Positions 24,117-63,290 of a stretch of 64,000 nucleotides of DNA are shown piece by piece (the stretch's first letter is position 1; the number at the start of each line of letters is the position of its first letter). The translations under genes were made by a program, and so were the position numbers. The notes beneath the pieces were generated by a model. The model saw only the letters and a program-made list of their open reading frames with translations, made no database searches and had not been told where the DNA came from. The DNA comes from a virus. The stretch lies in IMG/VR virus record IMGVR_UViG_3300031417_000416; one strand, given 5' to 3'.

Positions 24117-25142
24117 ATGCTAGTAACCGAATGGTCGGCCAAGGACGTCGCCAACCTCCTCTCCAGACCCGGACGCGGCAAGGCCAAGCCTTCCGGCCGG
24201 GGCTGGAAGGTGTGCTGCCCCGCGCATGACGACCGCACCCCGTCGCTCCAGCTGGACGACGGGACTGCGGGCCTCATCTGGCACTGCTTCGGGGGATGCG
24301 ATTCCCGCTCGGTGTTCGACTCGCTGCGAGCCGTCCTGTCCGGACAGAACGCGCCGACGCCGCTCACCAGGACCGAGCGCAAGGTAAAGCCCAAGGCCGA
24401 GGACGATCCCTTCACGCAGATCACGCCGGTGCCGGATACCGTGGCCGTGTCGATCGACGACTTCTATCACTTCGAGTACGGGTCGCCCGCCAACGTCTGG
24501 ACCTACCGCAACGCGGACGGCTCGCTCTACGGCTGGGTGTGCCGGTACAACATGAAGGACGGACACAAGGAGATAATCCCCTGGCTCTGGGGGCACGACA
24601 GGGCGAAGGGGAAGGACATGTTCAGGATGAAGGGCTTTCCCGAGCCCCGACCGCTGTACAATCTCCACCGGATAGCCGCCAGCGCCGACGCGCCACAGAT
24701 GCCGCCGATCCTCTACAACGAGGGAGAGAAGGACGCCGACGCGTCGGGAGCCCTGTTTCCCAACTGGATCCCGACGACGCCGCAGGGCGGCGCCAAGGCA
24801 TGGCACAAGTCAGACCATTCGCCACTCAGGGGACGACTGGTGATCCGGGCGCCCGACAACGACGGTCCGGGCTACGACATGGCTCTGGAGATGGAGCAGC
24901 TCTACGGTATACCCGTGCGCGATCTCCGGATCCTGCGCTTTCCGACGCACGTGCGCCCCCGCAACGGCGTGCTCGTCCCGGAACCCTACGTCATCGGCGA
25001 CGGATGGGGCGCGGCCGACCACGTCCGCGAGGGCTGGACCCACGGGCTTCTCAAGGAAGCCGTGAGGACGTCGCCGCACCCGCTCGTCGACACGGTCAGA
25101 AAGCTCGGGACGCCGTTCGAACCTATCGATTTCGAGGACTGA
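24117..25142 (+). CDS. zinc-binding domain + TOPRIM primase-like protein
   Basis: CCPAHDDRTPSL...WHCFGGC; NEGEKDADA, GGAKAW, APDNDGPG. Confidence 0.75.
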   Translation: MLVTEWSAKDVANLLSRPGRGKAKPSGRGWKVCCPAHDDRTPSLQLDDGTAGLIWHCFGGCDSRSVFDSLRAVLSGQNAPTPLTRTERKVKPKAEDDPFTQITPVPDTVAVSIDDFYHFEYGSPANVWTYRNADGSLYGWVCRYNMKDGHKEIIPWLWGHDRAKGKDMFRMKGFPEPRPLYNLHRIAASADAPQMPPILYNEGEKDADASGALFPNWIPTTPQGGAKAWHKSDHSPLRGRLVIRAPDNDGPGYDMALEMEQLYGIPVRDLRILRFPTHVRPRNGVLVPEPYVIGDGWGAADHVREGWTHGLLKEAVRTSPHPLVDTVRKLGTPFEPIDFED

Positions 25143-25262
25143 TACGCCTGCAGAGTCACAGTGATTTTAGGATGGGAGGAAAATATTTTACGAACGGCAC
25201 TTGCGTAGCCGATTCGAGACTGTGACAATTCGCCTCAGACATCCAGCAGGAGCGTATATAGC

Positions 25263-28200
25263 ATGTCGTCCTACAGCTACACTGACTGGGCCCAGCTCAG
25301 CGAGAATGACAAGAAGAACCTCCCGGGGGTCTCGATCCCGCGCGACCACAAGCTCAACAACCCCAACCGGGGCGTGTACTGGAGCCCGGAGACGTCGGCG
25401 CAGGCGCTGTCCGCTCACCTCGAGCAGATGCTGACCCACCCCGAGGACGCCATCCGCCAGCAGACCTTCAACGAGCTGCGCGGCGTCGCTGACGACGCCT
25501 TCCGCTCCTCGCGTCTGGTCGAGCGCGCGATGAACGTGCGTCGTGACGACGCCAACCGCGCCAGCGACGGCTACGCCGGCTTCATGGACGACACCCAGCT
25601 GACGCTGCTCGCCGACATCCAGAAGGACGTCTCGGTCATCCAGAAGGAGGCGCGTGCGCTCGGCCTCGACCCGATCGAGAACTCCAAGCGTGCGATGAAC
25701 ATCGCCTCTGGCCATGCCGTCGGCTTCGACATGGCCTCCGCCGAGGCCTCGTTCGCCAGGACCGGCCTGTCGATCGGCCCGGTCGAGACCATGAAGGACT
25801 CGGCTCGCCAGCTCAACAACTCGCTCTCGAACCGCGATCTCGACGCCATGGACATGGTCGAGTCGATCGGACGTTCGCGCAGCTTCGACGAGGACAGCCG
25901 CGACGAGCATCGCCGCATGGCCGACGTCATGAAGTCGATCCCGCTCGCGCTCGACTACGCGCAGCTGGCGACCGAGAACAATCCGTCGTTCCGCATGGAA
26001 ACGGCGGCCGAGGCGAGCGTCATGGAGACGCTGTCGCGCCAGGTCATGAAGTGGGAGACGCTGCCGGAGCGCGAGACCGTCCACGAGGCGTTCTCCGCAT
26101 GGCGCGACGCCGGCGTCGCCGAGTCGCCGTTCTCCAAGGACATCCCGCAGACCGTCGCCGTCATCGTCGGCGCGGGTCCGCAGGCTGCCGAGAACCTCGC
26201 CGACATGCTCGAGACGATCCGCGGCGATCAGCGCATGGGCGACCGTGACGTCACGATCCTGGCCGTCGAGCCGGACAAGGACTTCTACGACACGCTCAAG
26301 GAGCATGGCCGTCCGACCATCGAGGTCGTGGCGCTCGCCAGCACCAACGGCGTGTACGTCGACGCGCGCAACCAGGGCGAGGGCAAGGGCGATGACCCGA
26401 CCATCGAGCTGATGACGCTCAACCGCGAGGAGGCTCACGATCCGATCCGCCGCTCGCTCAGCGCGAACGCGCTGGTCGCGCGCGCCGCGACCGTCGCCTA
26501 CGTGCAGGGCGCCAACATGACGGTGGCGGAGGCGCAGGCCCTCCACATCGCCGGCACCGCGCGCAAGCTGTCGCTCGGCATCGACCGCGACGGCGAGAAG
26601 ATGGACGGCCAGGCTCTCGCTCGGGCGCGCGCCACCGCGATCTCGATCGACAAGAAGGACGATCCGCAGCGCTACTACACCGCAGGCCTGGCGCGTCCCG
26701 CCGACGGCATCTACGGCGTGGCGTTCGAGGCGTCGCGCTTCGCCGACCGCGGTCATGCCAAGCACGCTCCGGGTCAGGACATCATGGGCGACGCCTATGA
26801 CCGCGTGCCCAAGCACGCCACGATCTGGGCCGTCGACCAGCAGGAGAACGCCAACGTCCGCTGGCTGCAGGAGAACGCCACCGAGCGCACCATCCTGTAC
26901 GCCGAGGCCAAGCGCACCCTGTCCTTCTCGACCGTGGCCGGCATGGGCCTCGAGCGCCAGAAGGTCCGCACCCGCGAGGCCGGCACGGACATCACGATCT
27001 ATGACCGTCCGCGCGACCAGCGCGAGTACGAGATCGATCCGGCCACCGGCAAGGAGCGCTGCCTGACGCGTCCGCTGCAGCTCAACTCGTCGCGCGAAGC
27101 GTCGCCCGAGGAGAACGAGCAGGTCATGATCGACCGTCGCAAGATGCGCGGCGCGATCGTGCTCGTCACCGGCAGCGCCCACGACAAGGGCACCCTGAAC
27201 ACCAGCGCCCAGGAGGTGAAGGTGGCCCAGGAGGCCGTGGCCGACCGTGCGCACACGTTCGTGATCCTCAGCGACGCCAAGCACCCGGCGCTGTCCAAGG
27301 ACATGCACATGGCCCACATGACGCGTCTCGCCTACGAGACGAACAAGAAGGCCACGTTCATCAACGGCGACGGCAGCGAGATGCCGCTTGACGAGGCGCG
27401 CCGTCACACCACGCGCCTGGGTCCGAACCAGGAGGACGCGATCAACCTGAAGTTCGACGAGCGCATGCGGAAGATCGACAAGGACAACCGTCCGAAGGCA
27501 TCGTCCGACTACGCGCTCGACAGCGACGAGGGCCGTCTGGCGCTCGCGGCGCTGCCGGGCATGGATGCCCGTCGCGCGGCTGCCATCGCCTCCACGGAGG
27601 AGCTGGCAACCCTGACGATCAAGGAGGTCGCGACGAACCACGATCCGGAATTCCACCGTCAGCTTCACCAGGTGGTGCTGCGCGGTCCGGACGGACAGCC
27701 CGAGCTGGGCTCGAACGGCAAGGAGATTCCCGCCATGCCGGCCGAGACCCTGCGCGTCATCAACGACAAGGGCGAGTGGGCGACGGCTCTCGATCGCGCC
27801 GAGGCGATCACCGCCGAGACGAACAAGTTCGGCATGACCGTCTACCACCCGGACGAGCAGATGCACCCGCTGAAGCTGGTCAACGGACCCGACTATCAGC
27901 CCAAGAGCGTGATGATCGAGCACACGGCCAACCCCGATGCGTTCGACTTCTCGCAGCTCAAGCTGGCGGCGTTCATCGGTGGCAGCCAGTCGTACAACGA
28001 GCCGGGCGAGCTGCGCCGTCGCGAGGACGCGCGTCGCGAGATGGAGGACAAGCTGAAGGGCGTCACTGCCGACACGCTGGCCACCGAGGAGGGCCGCAAG
28101 ACCCGTGACGACGCGATCTCGTCGTACCGGGAGGCGGTCCGCGACACGCACGCGAGCCGCGATCCGGGCGAGAAGGTCGACCGCGAGCAGCTGCGTGCGG

Positions 28201-29390
28201 GCATGGAGCAGTTCACCAAGAACGGCTTCGGCATCGCCGTGGCTCTCGAGGAGGGCGTCTCCAAGGTCGTGCTCGAGGAGGTGATGAAGATCCCCGACGC
28301 CAAGGTCGTGATCGTCACCCCGGGTTCGGTCGAGGCGGCTCCCGTCGAGATGCGCAGCATGGTCAACCAGCTCGTCGAGAGCGGGCGCGGTTCGGTCATG
28401 ATGCCCGAGCAGATCTCGCAGTCCGGCGTCCGGGTCGACGATCCGAGCCCCAAGAAGGACGAGGAGGTCTTCCACTACGACGCGAGCAACAAGAAGTTCG
28501 TCCGCGAATCCGACAGTGCCCCGTCCGTCCCGCGTGCGGGTGCGGTACAGGACAACGGCGAGATCGACTGGAACGCCTCGGCCAAGACCAACACCATCAC
28601 GCAGGCCGAGATGGACTCCGCGATCGAGCCCGTGACCGTTCCGGTCTACGTCGAGAACCGCGACGCCATGCGTGCCAACCTCGCCGGGATCGCCTCGGTC
28701 GCGGTGGTGGTCGCCTCCAACGAGCGCGATCCGGCCATGCATGTCGTCCGGCAGATGATCGAGCAGGACAAGCCCGTCGCGGCCCTCGTCCCCACGGACG
28801 TGGCCGACATCCACTCCGAGGCCTACTCGGCGAACCGTCGTCTTCTCCGTCCCGACGGCAAGATGATGATCCAGAGCGAGCGCCTCGCACAGGGCGTCTC
28901 GGCTCAGGGTTTCGCCGAGATCCTCGAGGGCGACACGGAAGTGACGCTGCAAGGTGGCGTGATGCGGGGCAACTCGGGCACGTTCGTCAGCTCGCGCTTC
29001 GCGAAGGACGACATGCTGCGCAGCGGCAACCACGCTCACACCTTCGAGTGGGAGAACGGTGCGCGTCCGATCAGCTCGGCCAGGTCGATCGACACCCTCG
29101 CGGCGGACATCGAGCAGGGCCAGGCTCCGGTCATGGGCAGCCCGGGCGTCTACGTCGATCGCAAGATCGGCCTCGAGGGCGAGCACGGCGTCGAGAAGAT
29201 CGGTCGCATCGGCGTCCAGGAGGAGCAGCGCACGCTGTCTCGCCAGGGTGCCGCCAACACCGAGGTGCAGGAGGAGTTCGCCCAGCTGAGCCGCGTGCAC
29301 GGCATGGACGAGCGCACGATCGAGAACCAGACCCAGAGCAAGAAGGCAGCGTACGCCGCCCTCGAGCAGATGGGCGCCATGGGCCGCTGA
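25263..29390 (+). CDS. giant (1375 aa) multidomain protein with DprA/SLOG-like domains
   Basis: CAGGAG RBS, strong GC3 bias; about 27530-28860 follows DprA layout (LALAALPGM HhH; YHPDEQMHP.KL; AAFIGG; IAVALEEG; ENRD...LAGIASVAVVV; DKPVAALVP; ANRRLL). Confidence 0.8.
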   Translation: MSSYSYTDWAQLSENDKKNLPGVSIPRDHKLNNPNRGVYWSPETSAQALSAHLEQMLTHPEDAIRQQTFNELRGVADDAFRSSRLVERAMNVRRDDANRASDGYAGFMDDTQLTLLADIQKDVSVIQKEARALGLDPIENSKRAMNIASGHAVGFDMASAEASFARTGLSIGPVETMKDSARQLNNSLSNRDLDAMDMVESIGRSRSFDEDSRDEHRRMADVMKSIPLALDYAQLATENNPSFRMETAAEASVMETLSRQVMKWETLPERETVHEAFSAWRDAGVAESPFSKDIPQTVAVIVGAGPQAAENLADMLETIRGDQRMGDRDVTILAVEPDKDFYDTLKEHGRPTIEVVALASTNGVYVDARNQGEGKGDDPTIELMTLNREEAHDPIRRSLSANALVARAATVAYVQGANMTVAEAQALHIAGTARKLSLGIDRDGEKMDGQALARARATAISIDKKDDPQRYYTAGLARPADGIYGVAFEASRFADRGHAKHAPGQDIMGDAYDRVPKHATIWAVDQQENANVRWLQENATERTILYAEAKRTLSFSTVAGMGLERQKVRTREAGTDITIYDRPRDQREYEIDPATGKERCLTRPLQLNSSREASPEENEQVMIDRRKMRGAIVLVTGSAHDKGTLNTSAQEVKVAQEAVADRAHTFVILSDAKHPALSKDMHMAHMTRLAYETNKKATFINGDGSEMPLDEARRHTTRLGPNQEDAINLKFDERMRKIDKDNRPKASSDYALDSDEGRLALAALPGMDARRAAAIASTEELATLTIKEVATNHDPEFHRQLHQVVLRGPDGQPELGSNGKEIPAMPAETLRVINDKGEWATALDRAEAITAETNKFGMTVYHPDEQMHPLKLVNGPDYQPKSVMIEHTANPDAFDFSQLKLAAFIGGSQSYNEPGELRRREDARREMEDKLKGVTADTLATEEGRKTRDDAISSYREAVRDTHASRDPGEKVDREQLRAGMEQFTKNGFGIAVALEEGVSKVVLEEVMKIPDAKVVIVTPGSVEAAPVEMRSMVNQLVESGRGSVMMPEQISQSGVRVDDPSPKKDEEVFHYDASNKKFVRESDSAPSVPRAGAVQDNGEIDWNASAKTNTITQAEMDSAIEPVTVPVYVENRDAMRANLAGIASVAVVVASNERDPAMHVVRQMIEQDKPVAALVPTDVADIHSEAYSANRRLLRPDGKMMIQSERLAQGVSAQGFAEILEGDTEVTLQGGVMRGNSGTFVSSRFAKDDMLRSGNHAHTFEWENGARPISSARSIDTLAADIEQGQAPVMGSPGVYVDRKIGLEGEHGVEKIGRIGVQEEQRTLSRQGAANTEVQEEFAQLSRVHGMDERTIENQTQSKKAAYAALEQMGAMGR

Positions 29391-29417
29391 TCTCCGGCAT
29401 CATTGAGGAACTACCCG

Positions 29418-29454
29418 GAGGGGTCCGACGCAAGTCGGGCCCCTCTCTCTTTTT
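29418..29454 (+). terminator. intrinsic terminator
   Basis: GAGGGGTCCGAC-GCAA-GTCGGGCCCCTC followed by TCTCTTTTT. Confidence 0.8.
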
Positions 29455-29475
29455 CAGCACGAAAGGAACGACAAC

Positions 29476-30225
29476 ATGGCCAAGAAGCAAGAGGCACCGG
29501 CATCAGACCGGATCGTCGCCAGCACCGACAACAATCCGCCGGAGGCGCTCACGCTCCCGGTCGCGACCGACGTCGCCGCTCGCCACAAGGAGGCGGCCGA
29601 GGCGCTTCGGGACAAGCACCTCGAGACGTTCCTGACCTATCGTCGCGTTCCGGCGGTGATCGAGGACAAGGAGGTGTACGACCGCGTCACCACGCTGAGC
29701 GTGATGGTGAAGCAGGCGTTCGATGCGATCGACAAGGCGCGCAGCGCGGCCAAGAAGCCGTACCTGGACGGCGGTACGGCCGTCGACAAGGCGTACGCGC
29801 TCCCGGTTGAGGTGATTGATGCCGAGAAGCCGGACGAGAAGAAGACCGTTAACATGCTCGCCGAGCTGAAGGGGGCCCACGACTCCCTGAAGAAGCGTCT
29901 CTCCGCGTACGACACGGAGGAGTACAAGCGGACCGAGGCTCTGCGCATCGCCGAGCAGACCGGTATCGCTGCCGCCGCGGCCGGTGACGGCATCGCCATG
30001 GACGTGGCTCAGGCCGGCAGCGCCAAGATGCAGTCGAGCCACTCGGAGCACGGCGGCATGGCCATCAAGCGCGTGGAGAAGACCTTCACGATCGTCGACC
30101 CCTCGAAGGTGCCTGCGAGCCTCTGCTCGCCCGACCCCGTGAAGATCCAGGCGGCCATCGACGCCGGTGCCAGCGAGATCGCTGGCATCCAGATCGACGT
30201 GCAGGTAAAGACGCACGTCCGCTAG
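29476..30225 (+). CDS. phage-like coiled-coil protein (C-terminus resembles siphovirus Gp157-like proteins)
   Basis: GAAAGGAA RBS; tail FTIVDPSKVP...DPVKIQAAIDAGASEIAGIQI. Confidence 0.6.
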   Translation: MAKKQEAPASDRIVASTDNNPPEALTLPVATDVAARHKEAAEALRDKHLETFLTYRRVPAVIEDKEVYDRVTTLSVMVKQAFDAIDKARSAAKKPYLDGGTAVDKAYALPVEVIDAEKPDEKKTVNMLAELKGAHDSLKKRLSAYDTEEYKRTEALRIAEQTGIAAAAAGDGIAMDVAQAGSAKMQSSHSEHGGMAIKRVEKTFTIVDPSKVPASLCSPDPVKIQAAIDAGASEIAGIQIDVQVKTHVR

Positions 30226-58048: not shown

Positions 58049-59149
58049 ATGCTCAGAAACTTCATGGGCTCCATCGTATTCACGGTGGTGGCCCTCCTGC
58101 TCGCAGGCGTGCTGGGATACGTCGAGACGGGGGTCGCGCTCGCCGGCCTCCAGATGATGTTCCTCGCCGCCATTCTCGGCGTCATGGAGACGTCGCTCAG
58201 CCTCGACAACGCCGTTGTCAACGCGGCCATCCTCAAGGACATGGATCCCAAGTGGCAGCGCCGCTTCCTGACCTGGGGCATCCTCATCGCCGTCTTCGGC
58301 ATGCGAATCCTGTTTCCGCTGATCATCGTATCGGTCTCCGCCTGGGTGAACCCGATCGAGGCCGGCCGAATCGCGCTGTTCGATCATGAGCGCTACGAGC
58401 AGATCGTGACCGGCGCCCACGTCGGCATCTCCGGCTTCGGTGGTGCATTCCTGATGCTGGTCGGTCTGACGTTCTTCCTCGACGAGGATCGCGAGCATCA
58501 CTGGATCCCGTTCATCGAGAAGCCCCTCTCGATGCTCGCCCGGATCCCATATGCGCCGTACATCGTCAGCGCGATCGTCATCGGGCTCGTGTCGCTGATG
58601 GCGCCTGCCGAGGAAGCCAAGACGTTCCTCTACGCAGGCGGTGCAGGCATCGCGACCTACTTCGCAGTGCAGAAGTTCGGCGACTGGATGGGCGGCGAAG
58701 CCGATGCCACCGGCAAGATCGTACGCAGCGGCGCAGGGGCGTTCGTCTATCTCGAATTCCTCGACGCGTCGTTCTCGTTCGACGGCGTGATCGGCGCGTT
58801 CGCGATCACCAACGACATCGTGCTCATCGCACTCGGTCTCGGCATCGGCGCCATGTTCGTGCGTTCGATGACGATCGCCCTGGTCCGCGGCGGGCATCTG
58901 TCCGAGTACCGCTTCCTCGAGCCAGGTGCGTTCTACGCCATCATGGCGCTGGCGACGATCATGCTGCTCAGCATCCGCGTCGAGACCCCGGAGGTCATCA
59001 CTGGCCTGATCGGTGCCGCGTTCATCGGCGCTGCACTCTGGTACTCGATCCGTCACAAGCGCCTGAATCCGGACGACTACGCCGAGGACGGCGAGGCCGA
59101 CGCGATCATGCCTGACGGCAACGTCGTTCCCGGCGTCCACACGCGCTGA
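58049..59149 (+). CDS. terC: TerC-family (DUF475-type) integral membrane protein
   Basis: [54 protein letters not shown]. Confidence 0.9.
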
Positions 59150-59156
59150 TAGAGAT

Positions 59157-59188
59157 ACGTCCGGTCCTGCGGCGGGAGGGCCGGACGT
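59157..59188. other. 12-bp intergenic hairpin without U-tract
   Basis: ACGTCCGGTCCT..AGGGCCGGACGT. Confidence 0.55.
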
Positions 59189-59221
59189 CACGGTTCCCGT
59201 CTTCAACACCAAGGAGTAAAC

Positions 59222-59842
59222 ATGGGTATTTCACTTTCCAAGGGCGGCAACGTCAGCCTGAGCAAGGAAGAGCCTGGCCTCAACGAGATCACCATCGGCC
59301 TGGGCTGGGACGCCCGCGCCACCGATGGCGGCGACTTCGATCTCGACGCATCGCTATTCGCGCTCGGCGCGTCCGGCAAGGTCCGCGCCTCGGCGAATTC
59401 CGCCAACGGCCTGACCGACGACATCGCGGACTTCTGCTTCTACGGCAACCTGAAGATCCTGAACGACGCGGTCGTACACAAGGGCGACAACCGCACCGGC
59501 GCGGGCGAGGGCGACGACGAGTCGATCGACGTCACGCTGAACGCGGTGCCGCAGGACGTGCAGAAGCTCGCCGTCGTGATCACCATCGCCAAGGCCCGCG
59601 AGCTCGGCCTGAACTTCGGCATGGTCACCAACGCGTTCGCGCGCATCGTCAACACCAAGACCGGCCGCGAGATCGCGCGCTACGACCTCTCCGAGGACGC
59701 GGCGACCGAGACGGCCATCATCATCGGCGAGGTCTATCGCCATGGTGCCGAGTGGAAGTTCAAGGCCGTCAGCCAGGGCTTCGCCGGCGGCCTCTACAAG
59801 GTCTGCCACTTGTTCGGCATCAACGCCGACGACAACGGCTGA
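59222..59842 (+). CDS. terD: TerD-family protein
   Basis: [58 protein letters not shown]. Confidence 0.9.
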
Positions 59843-59849
59843 TAACGCA

Positions 59850-59877
59850 GGCCATCCTGCACTCCAGCAGGATGGCC
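59850..59877. other. 11-bp intergenic hairpin without U-tract
   Basis: GGCCATCCTGC-ACTCCA-GCAGGATGGCC. Confidence 0.6.
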
Positions 59878-59952
59878 GCGTCTACCGTCCGGGAAGTATC
59901 CGGACGTCACGTGCGTACCAATCGCTCCGCAACACGAAAGAAGGAATTTCAC

Positions 59953-60537
59953 ATGGCAGTTTCACTCAAGAAGGGCGGCAACGTCTCGCTGACCAAGAGC
60001 GACCCGAGCCTCACCTCGCTGATCATCGGCCTCGGCTGGAATCCGCGCAAGACCGACGGCGAGAAGTTCGATCTCGACGCCTCGGCATTCATGCTGGGTG
60101 ACAGCGGCAAGGTCGCCTCCGATGCCGACTTCATCTTCTACGGCAAGAAGACCTCGGACGACGGCTCGGTCGTCTATGGCGGCGACAACCGCACCGGCGA
60201 GGGCGACGGCGACGACGAGAAGATCACCATCGATCTGGCCAAGGTGCCCGCCAACGTCAAGAAGATCGCGATCACCGTCACGATCGACGAATGGGAAGCG
60301 CGCAAGCAGAACTTCGGCATGGTCGACGGCGCGTATGCACGCTGCGTCAACGGCACCTCGAACGTCGAAGTCGCGCGCTTCGACCTGTCGGAGGACTCGG
60401 CCGGCGAGACCGCGATGATCTTCGTCGAGATCTACCGCGGCAGCGAAGCCGAAGAGTGGAAGTTCAAGGCGATCGGGCAGGGCTACGAGGGCGGTCTCGC
60501 CCGTCTGGCAACCGACTACGGCGTCAACCTGGGCTGA
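59953..60537 (+). CDS. terE: TerD-family protein (TerE-like)
   Basis: [45 protein letters not shown]. Confidence 0.88.
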
Positions 60538-60592
60538 TGTTTCCCCATAAGATGGCGGTCTAGTCTTTGACTTCTCCGTCATCTACTGGCGT

Positions 60593-60623
60593 ATGCCGTT
60601 GCGCTTGTATGGCGCAACGGCAT
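60593..60623. other. perfect 12-bp inverted repeat (terminator or operator)
   Basis: ATGCCGTTGCGC-N7-GCGCAACGGCAT. Confidence 0.6.
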
Positions 60624-60654
60624 TTCGCTGTCAAATGACTTATTGCCGCGGAAC

Positions 60655-61980
60655 ATGATCATGCAGACGATGAAGCCGGGCGAGAAACGCCCCATCTCGG
60701 ACGTGACGACCGATCGCAGGATCCAGGTCGCCGTCACCCATTCTCCCGCGGACATCGACATCGCCGCCTTCGGTCTGAACGACCGGAAGATGATCGGCGA
60801 CGACCGCTACGTCGTACTGTTCAGCAACGAGCGCAGCCCCGAAGGCGCGATCGCCTTCGCGAAGGGCAGCGGCTCGACCGTCATCACGGTCGATCTCGAC
60901 CGTCTTCCCGCGGACATCCACCGCGTATCCATCACGGCGACGCATGACGACATGCCGCTGCGACAGGCGACCGCGCTCAGCGCAGACGTCGCCGGCGCGG
61001 TCACAATCGACGCCAAGCCCATGCTGGGAGACGAGAAGGCGGTCATGCTGCTCGACCTCTACCGCCACGGCGGCGACTGGCGGCTCGGATCGATCGTACA
61101 GGGCTTCAACGGCGGTCTCGCCGCCCTCGTAGAGCACTTCGGCGGCGACGTCGCAGGCGACGAGGAGGCCGCGGCACCCTCGCCGACACCCGCGCCTGCT
61201 GTTGCTGCTCCGGCGGCGCCGCCCCCGGAAGCTCCCCTGCCGACCGGCAAGGTGGATCTGCGCAAGCACAAGGTCGGCGTGTCGCTGAAGAAGCTCGGCA
61301 TCGAGAACGAGAAGGCCGACGTCACCTTCGTCATGGACGGCAGTGGCTCCATGGCCGGCCTATATGCGAACGGCACCGTGCAGGAGACCATCGAGCGCGG
61401 CGCTCCAGTGGCGCTACGTATCGATCCGGACGGCAGCATGGACACCTGGTACTATGCCAGCTCGTGCAAGCAGGTGGCCTCGCTGACCGCCGACAATCTC
61501 GAGGGCTTCGTCGCCCGTACGCTCCCGTCGCCCGGCGAGCGCATCGGCGGTATCGAGACGGGCAAGAAGGGCTTCTTCGGCGGCATGGCCAAGACCGGTG
61601 GAGAGTCCATCGGCTTCGGCAACAACGAGCCCGTCGTAATGAACGCGATCCTGGCCACCGAACCCGCCAGGCGTACGGTTCCCCGGCTCGTGATCTTCGT
61701 CACCGACGGCGGCATCGACGGCGGCACGTCGGCGGTCATCAAGGACATCCTGCGCAAGAGCTCGCGGCAGGCCATCTTCTGGCAGTTCGTCGGCGTCGGC
61801 AACGCGAACTACGGGGTCCTGCGCGAGCTGGACACCGTCGAGGGGCGCGTGGTCGACAACGCCGGCTTCTTCAGCATCGACGATCTTTCGGCCATCAGCG
61901 ACGACGATCTCTACGACCGCGTGCTCTCGGAATTCCCGGCATGGCTCCGGGCGGCGCGCGCGGCCGGAATCATCGGATAG
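60655..61980 (+). CDS. TerD-like domain + vWA domain protein (TerF-like)
   Basis: YRHGGDWRL..QGFNGGL; MIDAS DGSGS; VIFVTDGG, FWQFVGVG, VVDNAGFF. Confidence 0.85.
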   Translation: MIMQTMKPGEKRPISDVTTDRRIQVAVTHSPADIDIAAFGLNDRKMIGDDRYVVLFSNERSPEGAIAFAKGSGSTVITVDLDRLPADIHRVSITATHDDMPLRQATALSADVAGAVTIDAKPMLGDEKAVMLLDLYRHGGDWRLGSIVQGFNGGLAALVEHFGGDVAGDEEAAAPSPTPAPAVAAPAAPPPEAPLPTGKVDLRKHKVGVSLKKLGIENEKADVTFVMDGSGSMAGLYANGTVQETIERGAPVALRIDPDGSMDTWYYASSCKQVASLTADNLEGFVARTLPSPGERIGGIETGKKGFFGGMAKTGGESIGFGNNEPVVMNAILATEPARRTVPRLVIFVTDGGIDGGTSAVIKDILRKSSRQAIFWQFVGVGNANYGVLRELDTVEGRVVDNAGFFSIDDLSAISDDDLYDRVLSEFPAWLRAARAAGIIG

Positions 61981-61986
61981 GGGAGA

Positions 61987-62277
61987 ATGCCCGTGACAGA
62001 GGAAAACGAGAGCGTCGAGACGCAGGTCGAGCCGGCAGCGGAGGCAAAGAGCCCGGGGATCTACCAGATCGTCGAGGCCGGCGTGCTCGGCGTGGGCTTC
62101 GCCGTCATCTACGCCTTCGGCATCCTGCGCTTCTCGCAGATGGTGGCCATGGCATGGGGACCGCTGCCCGCGATCGGGATGGCCCTGTTCGGCGTGGTCA
62201 TCGCGATCGGCTTCATCGACGCGGTAAGCGCACTCATCAACGACACACGCAAGACGAAGGACGACGAGAAGGCATGA
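61987..62277 (+). CDS. small two-TM membrane protein
   Basis: GGGAGA RBS; two hydrophobic helices; ATGA coupling. Confidence 0.6.
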   Translation: MPVTEENESVETQVEPAAEAKSPGIYQIVEAGVLGVGFAVIYAFGILRFSQMVAMAWGPLPAIGMALFGVVIAIGFIDAVSALINDTRKTKDDEKA

Positions 62278-63290
62278 GGATCTGGTTCAATCAAGGCCAT
62301 ACCCTGTTCCAGACGCTACGAGGGATGGAGGAGCGCGTACCGGGAGTGACCATGCTGGTCAGCGCGAAGAACGCGATGTCGCCCTCGGCGATGGCCGGCA
62401 GCGAGACGTGGGTCGAGCCAGCCGATCTCGAGGGCGCCGACTATGCGCGCTGGGCCCTGGATCGCGCCATCGAGGCTCGCGTCGACGTCTTCTTCCCGCA
62501 GAAGGAGGTCCTGGCCATCGCCGACGCGGCCGACGACTTCCGCAGGGCCGGCATCCGCCTCGAGCTGCCGGGGTCGGCGGCGACGATCCGCCTGCTGGAC
62601 GACAAGGCCGCGATGTCCGAGGACCTTGCCGGAGATCCGATCCTAGCTCCCACGATCCGTGCCCGAAGCGCAGCCGAGGTCGACGAGGCCGTCCGGACGA
62701 TCCGCGCAGCGGGCGTCGACGCATGCGTGAAGCCTGCACACGGCGTGTTCGCCCGGGGCTACTGGCATCTGGTCGAGGACGACCTCCTCGAATGCCTCGA
62801 CGACGTCGGCAGCCGACGGATGCCGCTGGCGACGTATGTGCAGGCGGTCGAGCAGGCGGAACGACGCGGCGTACCCGTCGACCTCATCGTCATGGAGCAT
62901 CTCCCCGGTACCGAGGCCTCGGTAGACGTGCATGCACGCGACGGCGAGCTCCTGCGCGCGGTGACGCGGGTCAAGATCAAGTCGTCACGTCAGCTGATCG
63001 TCGGCGGACACGAGCTCGTGGAGACGGCCGCGAGGCTGGTGTCGCGCTATCGCCTCAACGGGGTGGTCAACGTCCAGTTCAAGCCGACGGCTTCCGGCGA
63101 GTGGCGAATCCTGGAGATCAACCCCCGAATGGCCGGCGGGCTCTCCTACGCCATGCCGGTGGGCATGGATCTGGCCGCGGACTGGGTACGTGCCGCGACC
63201 GGCCAGTGCATCCATCCAGTTCAGGATGCGTTCGAGCGGGTAATCAACTTCCACACAGAGGCCACCCTGCGCGGGAACACTACCCCCTAG
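62274..63290 (+). CDS. ATP-grasp enzyme of the Ter-associated type
   Basis: MRIWFNQG, DVFFPQ, LDDKA, CVKP..G..ARGY, MEHLPG.E.SVD, NVQFK, LEINPRMAGG. Confidence 0.8.
   Translation: MRIWFNQGHTLFQTLRGMEERVPGVTMLVSAKNAMSPSAMAGSETWVEPADLEGADYARWALDRAIEARVDVFFPQKEVLAIADAADDFRRAGIRLELPGSAATIRLLDDKAAMSEDLAGDPILAPTIRARSAAEVDEAVRTIRAAGVDACVKPAHGVFARGYWHLVEDDLLECLDDVGSRRMPLATYVQAVEQAERRGVPVDLIVMEHLPGTEASVDVHARDGELLRAVTRVKIKSSRQLIVGGHELVETAARLVSRYRLNGVVNVQFKPTASGEWRILEINPRMAGGLSYAMPVGMDLAADWVRAATGQCIHPVQDAFERVINFHTEATLRGNTTP

Follow-up and report, generated by a model that had tools for sequence, protein, structure and literature searches.

DprA binds the single-stranded DNA (ssDNA) that enters a cell and loads RecA onto it; it acts as a gatekeeper in natural transformation, and it has to form a homodimer. 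In the literature searched, DprA on mobile elements is described as a stand-alone protein of jumbo phages (PMC7824862) and, under the name ShosA, as part of a defence system (PMC11961720, PMC12961424); such diverged copies have come to light only recently. ShosA, another diverged DprA, binds both ssDNA and RecA (PMC11961720, PMC12961424), and it conserves the residues with which the Helicobacter pylori protein (HpDprA) contacts ssDNA, namely R52, R143 and R170 (PMC12961424). The survey of polyvalent proteins by Iyer et al. (2017) lists no DprA domain, and names DprA merely as the functional partner of a phosphoribosyltransferase (PRTase)-helicase system (PMC5512222). Here we describe a 1375-aa protein encoded on the plus strand of IMG/VR record IMGVR_UViG_3300031417_000416 (64,000 nt, one strand, 5′ to 3′; this whole stretch is called the window below). 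Its C-terminal half contains a true, extremely diverged homologue of DprA, and the protein may handle the single-stranded intermediates of the conjugative-type element that carries it.

Both the fold and the ancestry of the C-terminal module (aa 746-1290) are certain. We modelled aa 746-1375 with AlphaFold2 (AF2) from a 22-sequence alignment and obtained a predicted local distance difference test score (pLDDT) of 77, with a core above 85. When this model was compared with the Protein Data Bank (PDB) using Foldseek, the DprA of R. palustris came first (E 8e-10), followed by ShosA and the DprAs of S. pneumoniae and H. pylori, all with a probability of 1.00. Other SLOG families ranked next (TM1055, 14.5; molybdenum cofactor (MoCo) carrier protein, 13.5; LOG, 11.8; YpsA, 11.4; the SLOG domain of ThsA, 9.9), and generic Rossmann proteins scored below 9. 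The model shows a sterile alpha motif (SAM)-like head and an extended Rossmann fold that can be superposed on solved DprAs, and its Rossmannoid fold is of the SLOG type, as in LOG, YpsA, the MoCo carrier protein and ThsA. As a reference for profile comparison we aligned 24 canonical DprAs out of 31 genomes of the host's phylum. With hhalign, the family alignment of aa 746-1295 matched this reference with a probability of 98% (E 2.4e-13) over 275 columns that include the SAM head and the Rossmann fold, while its match to a LOG alignment reached 51% (E 1.5e-4), against 79.5% for the DprA-versus-LOG control. The sole Pfam hit in the 1375-aa protein falls at aa 1140-1186, where PF02481, the DprA family, scores 16.8 bits and stays below its cut-off of 29.6; the same family matches 12 of the 22 relatives examined and passes the cut-off in a distant relative, P0026, with 32.4 bits. 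A preliminary description of this DNA, made from its letters, had named structure prediction, Foldseek and PF02481 as the check on this half of the protein, and that check returned the DprA fold, with SLOG/Rossmann folds present.

The same description had announced a DprA-like unit with altered signature residues, and the profile match bears this out in detail. The motifs VG(S/T/A)R, SGxAxGID and SGSxxT(A)R are replaced by IGGS, VALEEGVS and RDPAMHVVR, respectively. In the hhalign alignment, VGAR of DprA falls on IGGS, which puts Ser908 at the position of HpDprA R52, a position that is never arginine in the family; SGLARGID falls on VALEEGVS, and SGSLIT on RDPAMH. Most family members do keep the other two arginines that contact ssDNA, as R1133 (equivalent to HpDprA R143, in NR) and R1163 (equivalent to R170). 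Also kept are the LPG of the helix-hairpin-helix (HhH), the YP position, KPVA-P in place of REVFAVPG, and SAN-LL in place of GxNxLI. The YP motif itself aligns to H868-P869 (in MHPLKL), and distant relatives retain a true YP; it does not align to the YHP at 861-863 that the preliminary description had named. The module carries four insertions, the first being a linker behind the SAM head and the other three listed in Table 1. It is also acidic, with an isoelectric point (pI) of 4.9; the full-length protein is acidic too, with a pI of 5.2 and a net charge of -51. For the canonical DprAs that we collected the median is 6.9 (range 5.2-9.6). In the hosts of its relatives a normal DprA is encoded elsewhere, with scores of 246-249 bits.

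The gene keeps constant company. At six loci, whose proteins reach down to about 20% identity, the order is (type IV coupling protein, T4CP), UvrD, a hypothetical gene on the reverse strand, topoisomerase III (TopoIII), a YqaJ-like gene, a Rad52-type annealase, a zinc-ribbon/Toprim primase and the 1375-aa gene, with an exonuclease-like or ssDNA-binding protein (SSB) gene, small open reading frames (ORFs), (ribonucleotide reductase, RNR) and UvrD on its 3′ side. This DNA-processing block occurs on megaplasmid-type elements of Sphingomonadales, and the 1375-aa gene is a conserved core member of the block on these rare conjugative elements. In the closed circular plasmid of Erythrobacter aureus YH-07 (NZ_CP031358.1), the block directly follows virB9-virB10-virB11-virD4, and in the window itself we find a T4CP, a VirB6-like gene and a soluble lytic transglycosylase (SLT) gene, in agreement with the earlier statement that the protein belongs to a conjugative-type element. 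In distant relatives it is an SSB gene that lies 3′ of the giant gene, directly on the E. aureus plasmid and as the second gene down at another locus (L003). Two ORFs further downstream, of 140 and 83 aa, are conserved, including where SSB replaces the exonuclease-like gene. No RecA is encoded within the 64-kb window; full-length RecA genes are present on a 581-kb contig of Sphingomonas sp. 3-13AW (L041 1267-2349, minus strand; G001 C1:258282-259085), where RecA shares 81% identity with the one encoded by the chromosome, as well as on the plasmid of E. aureus (L042; 243969-244754).

We showed that the protein is made of five parts. Its orphan N-terminal domain is followed by two Rossmann-like domains (D1 and D2), a complete DprA module (D3) and a conserved C-terminal tail. 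When aa 286-745 were modelled with AF2 (pLDDT 85, predicted template modelling score 0.76), two alpha/beta domains emerged, D1 at about aa 295-477 and D2 at about aa 483-740, the latter with a long beta-hairpin insertion. Aligned with each other by hhalign, they gave a probability of 59% (E 9e-5) with narrow alignments; with wider ones it was 73% (E 3.2e-5), over 166 columns that span nearly the full length. On this comparison the two domains are paralogues. The alignment pairs the helix-strand-helix pattern singled out in the preliminary description, which had proposed that two SLOG-fold segments might lie here: the Rossmann-like alpha/beta fold, the shared terminal pattern and the mutual alignment stand, and a SLOG assignment is borderline for D2 and tentative for D1. 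Foldseek returned only two-Rossmann-domain proteins for the D1-D2 model (phosphoglycerate kinase, glycosyltransferases of the GT-B fold, ThsA) at a template modelling (TM) score of about 0.2, and a fold search of the ESM Atlas only hypothetical or unrelated clusters, with TM 0.2-0.3 by query; a feature search of the same atlas with aa 290-745 gave no usable match. As hhalign pairs D1 or D2 with D3 at a probability of only 0.8-3.5%, a common DprA-like ancestor of the three domains is not demonstrable. An Asp/Glu-His signature is found in D1, D2 and D3 at the loop and helix position of the phosphate-binding motif of DprA and LOG, with D680 invariant in 19 sequences and D1156 near-invariant. The second half of D2 (KVAQEA...KDxHxAH...RLA...GK) is conserved throughout the superfamily; D1 is not detectably conserved among the distant relatives.

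The N-terminal domain is matched by all distant relatives (profile positions 1-340). It has no relative in Pfam, the PHROGs or a feature search of the ESM Atlas (aa 1-289), gives no signal with hhalign against DprA, LOG, D1, D2 or D3, and the only shorter proteins related to it are fragments at contig ends. A PF02481 "best stretch" in this domain of the relative P0003 was judged spurious. We also considered the 1375-aa protein as a missing relaxase, an idea prompted by the conserved tyrosines in its N-terminus and by the typing of the E. aureus plasmid as non-mobilizable by PLSDB/MOB-suite, despite a MobA_MobL-type relaxase domain on that plasmid. The idea was rejected, because the plasmid and the Sphingomonas contig both carry such a relaxase, in frames of 1149-1189 aa (domains at NZ_CP031358.1 117097-117624 and G001 C1:339050-339496); the N-terminal domain shows no HUH-like motif, and PF03432, PF08751 and PF07514 gave nothing. 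At the other end of the protein, five residues of the tail motif EEFxxxSxxHxxD (E1338, F1339, S1343, H1346 and D1349) are invariant in seven sequences, and the motif looks like a docking peptide for a partner. With its five modules, on an element that has T4CP, VirB6-like and SLT genes and whose relatives carry a type IV secretion system (T4SS), the protein is multidomain and conjugative-element-borne in the manner of polyvalent proteins. None of the catalogued polyvalent-protein domains (LPD families, ART-PolyVal, methyltransferase, SNF2, peptidases and others) was found in it or in 18 relatives at a Pfam E ≤1, apart from a chance-level LPD22 match (E 0.048), so the term "polyvalent-like", used in the preliminary description, fits loosely: the general architecture agrees, the catalogued domains do not.

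The family is rare. A word-indexed search of 5.8 billion proteins yielded seven relatives. One of them alone carries a name, a "hypothetical protein" from Sphingomonas sp. 3-13AW that shares 80% identity and is encoded on the 581-kb contig mentioned above. When 1.84 billion cluster representatives were searched exhaustively with an HMMER profile, 21 proteins reached E ≤0.001. The distant relatives measure 1049-1584 aa and are about 17-25% identical to the 1375-aa protein; they share the N-terminal 340 residues and the stretch from the second half of D2 through the end of the DprA module, and their middle portions differ. A scan of the species-genome collection brought up Sphingomonas sp. 3-13AW as the only genome with a relative, and the single match in the plasmid collection was a 1398-aa distant homologue on the 408-kb plasmid of E. 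aureus YH-07; across the phage and plasmid collections, no DNA match to the locus and no phage protein match were obtained. Neither NCBIfam nor the PHROGs contain a family that matches the protein, which, with no family of Pfam either and an annotation as "hypothetical", is as undescribed as had been stated. A search of viral folds (BFVD) gave nothing at E ≤0.001, and a sequence search of solved structures with the whole protein and with D2 and D3 profiles gave no DprA or SLOG protein, only chance matches at E ≥0.02. The assembly that holds P0026 (GCA_009296175.1) measures 8.8 Mb and has four full RecA genes, each on a contig of its own; for this reason it is probably a mixed assembly.

Homology and the conserved neighbourhood suggest that the 1375-aa protein is a mediator that handles the single-stranded intermediates of its element, a reading to which we assign a probability of roughly one half. 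It would act on the strand that conjugation has transferred, or on intermediates of rolling-circle replication or recombination. With two of the three ssDNA-contacting arginines, the DprA module would bind or cap the ssDNA, which might then be handed to nearby partners, that is, the upstream primase, the Rad52-type annealase, the exonuclease or SSB, and the RecA of the element. D1 and D2 could add binding or oligomerisation surfaces and so provide a built-in pseudo-dimer in place of the DprA homodimer. Weighing against this proposal are the loss of the classical DprA motifs, the marked acidity of module and protein, the indirect nature of what a gene neighbourhood can tell, and the fact that it leaves the best-conserved part of the protein, its N-terminal domain, without explanation. 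Because both the module and the protein are acidic, canonical ssDNA binding by the DprA module is not assured. A complex predicted from the Sphingomonas homologue (C-terminal half) and the RecA of its own element came back without a verdict (score 0.00, no controls) and counts neither for nor against binding.

Since the classic motifs are lost and the protein is acidic, we also leave a modest chance to a protein that keeps the fold and no longer binds DNA, acting instead as a protein-binding scaffold or modulator; it might, for instance, hold or restrain RecA, SSB, the annealase or the primase on the DNA of the element, much as PsiB controls RecA during conjugation. Such a role would suit the acidic and histidine residues that replace the phosphate-binding signature loops (VALEEGVS and RDPAMH, with the near-invariant D1156), the low pI of the module and a short, conserved motif that lies in a disordered tail, a feature typical of docking peptides. 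Two of the three ssDNA-contacting arginines are, however, kept in most family members, and some canonical DprAs are as acidic as pI 5.2; a scaffold devoid of DNA binding seems to us unlikely.

The preliminary description had suggested that the protein might neutralise nucleotide-based immunity in the recipient. In this scenario D1, D2 and perhaps the remodelled DprA pocket would bind, sequester or hydrolyse immune nucleotides, such as cyclic oligoadenylates (cOA), glyco-cyclic ADP-ribose (gcADPR) or the products of cyclic-oligonucleotide-based anti-phage signalling systems (CBASS), in the way of Tad, Acb and ring-nuclease proteins. The genomic context does not favour it: the neighbours are replication and recombination genes (primase, Rad52, exonuclease or SSB, TopoIII, UvrD, RNR), and neither anti-defence genes nor an anti-defence island accompany them. 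No Pfam SLOG or CARF family matched any of the 19-20 family members, the hhalign probability of D1 or D2 against LOG was 0.1-0.6%, compared with the DprA-LOG control of 79.5%, and D1 fades from detection in distant relatives. A tandem D1-D2 pair could mimic a sensor homodimer and the protein is encoded on a conjugative element; the nucleotide-signal reading is nonetheless drawn from borderline fold neighbours, is unsupported by context, and we hold it to be improbable. The preliminary description had further proposed that the protein is co-transferred into the recipient; none of our tests supports this, and the protein may or may not pass through the T4SS with the DNA as the Sog and TraC primases do. 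A broader version would make the protein conjugation's own counterpart of the DprA pathway, with three SLOG-derived modules that are delivered with, or made on, the transferred strand, coat it and hand it to the element's own RecA, Rad52-type annealase and primase, while D1-D2 bind a nucleotide ligand (for example an immune second messenger) that couples or shields the hand-over; taken as a whole, this is a speculation to which we give little credence.

The idea that the ORF is spurious or decaying, held open by high G+C, has some appeal in view of a 1370-aa antisense "mirror" ORF (25188-29300, minus strand) that spans nearly the whole gene and proves that very long frames arise compositionally here, but it is already refuted by the third-position G+C of the sense frame, the full-length homologues (36-84% identity) in conserved synteny, the confident fold models, and the presence of both a ribosome-binding site and a terminator. 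The 1375-codon frame at 25263-29390 (+) is uninterrupted, and its G+C at codon positions 1, 2 and 3 (0.67, 0.44 and 0.92) is a strong coding signature: the gene is real. The antisense ORF is open merely because the sense frame lacks TTA, CTA and TCA codons; it is a compositional artefact and not a gene. The terminator, which the preliminary description had noticed, has its hairpin at 29417-29446, after the stop codon, followed by the T run.

Upstream of the gene, a promoter-like TTGCGT-17 nt-TGtGACAAT pattern of the extended -10 type may serve as its promoter. The pattern occurs once in the window, where none is expected by chance. Its TTGC and TG.GAC.ATT columns do not vary among the upstream regions of four homologous genes, whose proteins are as little as about 20-40% identical; a generic sigma-70 scan made no call at this motif. 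The inverted repeat GTCACAGT/ACTGTGAC, also reported earlier, does exist, and its right arm overlaps the conserved -10-like element. We judge it to be a chance occurrence, because an unrelated inverted repeat, likewise of 8 nt, occurs in the same stretch of 200 nt, and because the left arm of GTCACAGT/ACTGTGAC lacks conservation at the 80%-identical locus of Sphingomonas sp. 3-13AW. The coordinates of all these features are collected in Table 1.

Table 1. The 1375-aa gene, the parts of its product and the flanking features, by position in the window.
Feature	Position (nt)	Strand	Residues (aa)	Basis and remarks
Upstream primase	24117-25142	+	341 in total	CHC2 zinc ribbon and Toprim-type PHROG matches; always adjoins the giant gene
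Inverted repeat, 8 nt, GTCACAGT / ACTGTGAC	arms 25155-25162, 25219-25226	.		Sequence check
Promoter-like TTGCGT-17 nt-TGtGACAAT, extended -10 type	25201-25229	+		Read from sequence; putative
Ribosome-binding site AGGAG	25248-25252	+		10 nt 5′ of ATG; read from sequence
Coding sequence P0001	25263-29390	+	1375 in total	ORF list and translation; third-position G+C 0.92; full-length homologues, 36-84% identity
N-terminal orphan domain	25263-26129	+	1-289	Acidic; conserved extreme N-terminus and NNPxRGxYWS motif
D1, Rossmann-like alpha/beta	26130-26696	+	290-478	Paralogue of D2
D2, Rossmann-like	26697-27497	+	479-745	Beta-hairpin insertion at about aa 537-610
SAM/HhH head of DprA module	27498-27671	+	746-803	LPGM motif
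DprA-type Rossmann fold	27837-29132	+	859-1290	
Helical insertion of DprA module	28008-28187	+	916-975	
Beta/disordered insertion of DprA module	28413-28637	+	1051-1125	Missing from 40%-identical relatives
Beta-rich insertion of DprA module	28860-29078	+	1200-1272	Before the last Rossmann helix
C-terminal tail	29133-29387	+	1291-1375	Low-confidence helices; pLDDT 40-54
Tail motif EEFxxxSxxHxxD	29271-29309	+	1337-1349	In the C-terminal tail
Intrinsic terminator	29417-29456	+		13-bp stem with 9 GC pairs, GCAA loop and T run; terminator scan and sequence
Downstream gene	29476-30225	+		Phage exonuclease family phrog_10477, E 5.5e-6

Elsewhere in the window there are genes for RecD2, a C5 methylase and Ter proteins, in addition to the VirB6-like and SLT genes. 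The Ter genes (TerC/DUF475, TerD, a TerF-like TerD-vWA and ATP-grasp_Ter) occupy 58049-63290, on the same element as the block. At the locus of a 36%-identity relative (Logan SRR27341043, L002 1-997), the 1041-aa T4CP (VirD4) has intein/homing-endonuclease matches (Hom_end_hint), from which its gene appears to be interrupted by an intein.

Compared with known systems, the protein differs from DprA/Smf (PF02481; 3UQZ, 3MAJ, 4LJK) in several ways. Those are stand-alone proteins of 280-400 aa, whereas here the module sits in the C-terminal half of a 1375-aa protein, carries four insertions that include a beta-rich module, has lost the GSR arginine, SGxAxGID and SGSxxT, is acidic, scores below the Pfam cut-off, and is encoded by a plasmid-type element in a host that has a normal DprA. 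In the ShosTA defence system, the antitoxin is the DprA-like ShosA (8ZVA; PMC11961720, PMC12961424), a small homodimer that is paired with a PRTase toxin and keeps all three DNA-binding arginines, compared with two here; no such toxin adjoins the 1375-aa gene. D1 and D2 are three-layer Rossmann-like domains, and their nearest solved folds, as borderline neighbours, are sensors of the SLOG and CARF kind (the SLOG domain of ThsA, 6LHX/7UXT; LOG; TM1055; the CARF domains of Card1, Can2 and Csa3).

What is new is a strongly remodelled DprA fused into a giant protein, which very large conjugative plasmids have as a constant member of their DNA-processing block. Beside the diverged DprA, this element itself encodes an annealase of the Rad52 type, a primase and RNR, and related elements encode a RecA of their own. 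Nothing in this family has been studied, because it is tiny in current databases. If the protein does handle the transferred strand, it would represent a new class of conjugative establishment factor and a natural experiment in the repurposing of the DprA pocket; the D1-D2 pair and the orphan N-terminal domain are folds and families worth solving. In its possible working, and in that respect only, the protein is reminiscent of Sog (IncI1) and TraC (IncP), likewise large and encoded, on conjugative plasmids, in the neighbourhood of T4CP, TopoIII and primase. The Sog and TraC primases travel with the transferred single strand and act on it. They have no relation in sequence or fold to the 1375-aa protein, and the primase is here a separate small polypeptide, whose gene lies directly upstream; the pair of genes is reminiscent of a primase like Sog or TraC from which the large partner has been separated.

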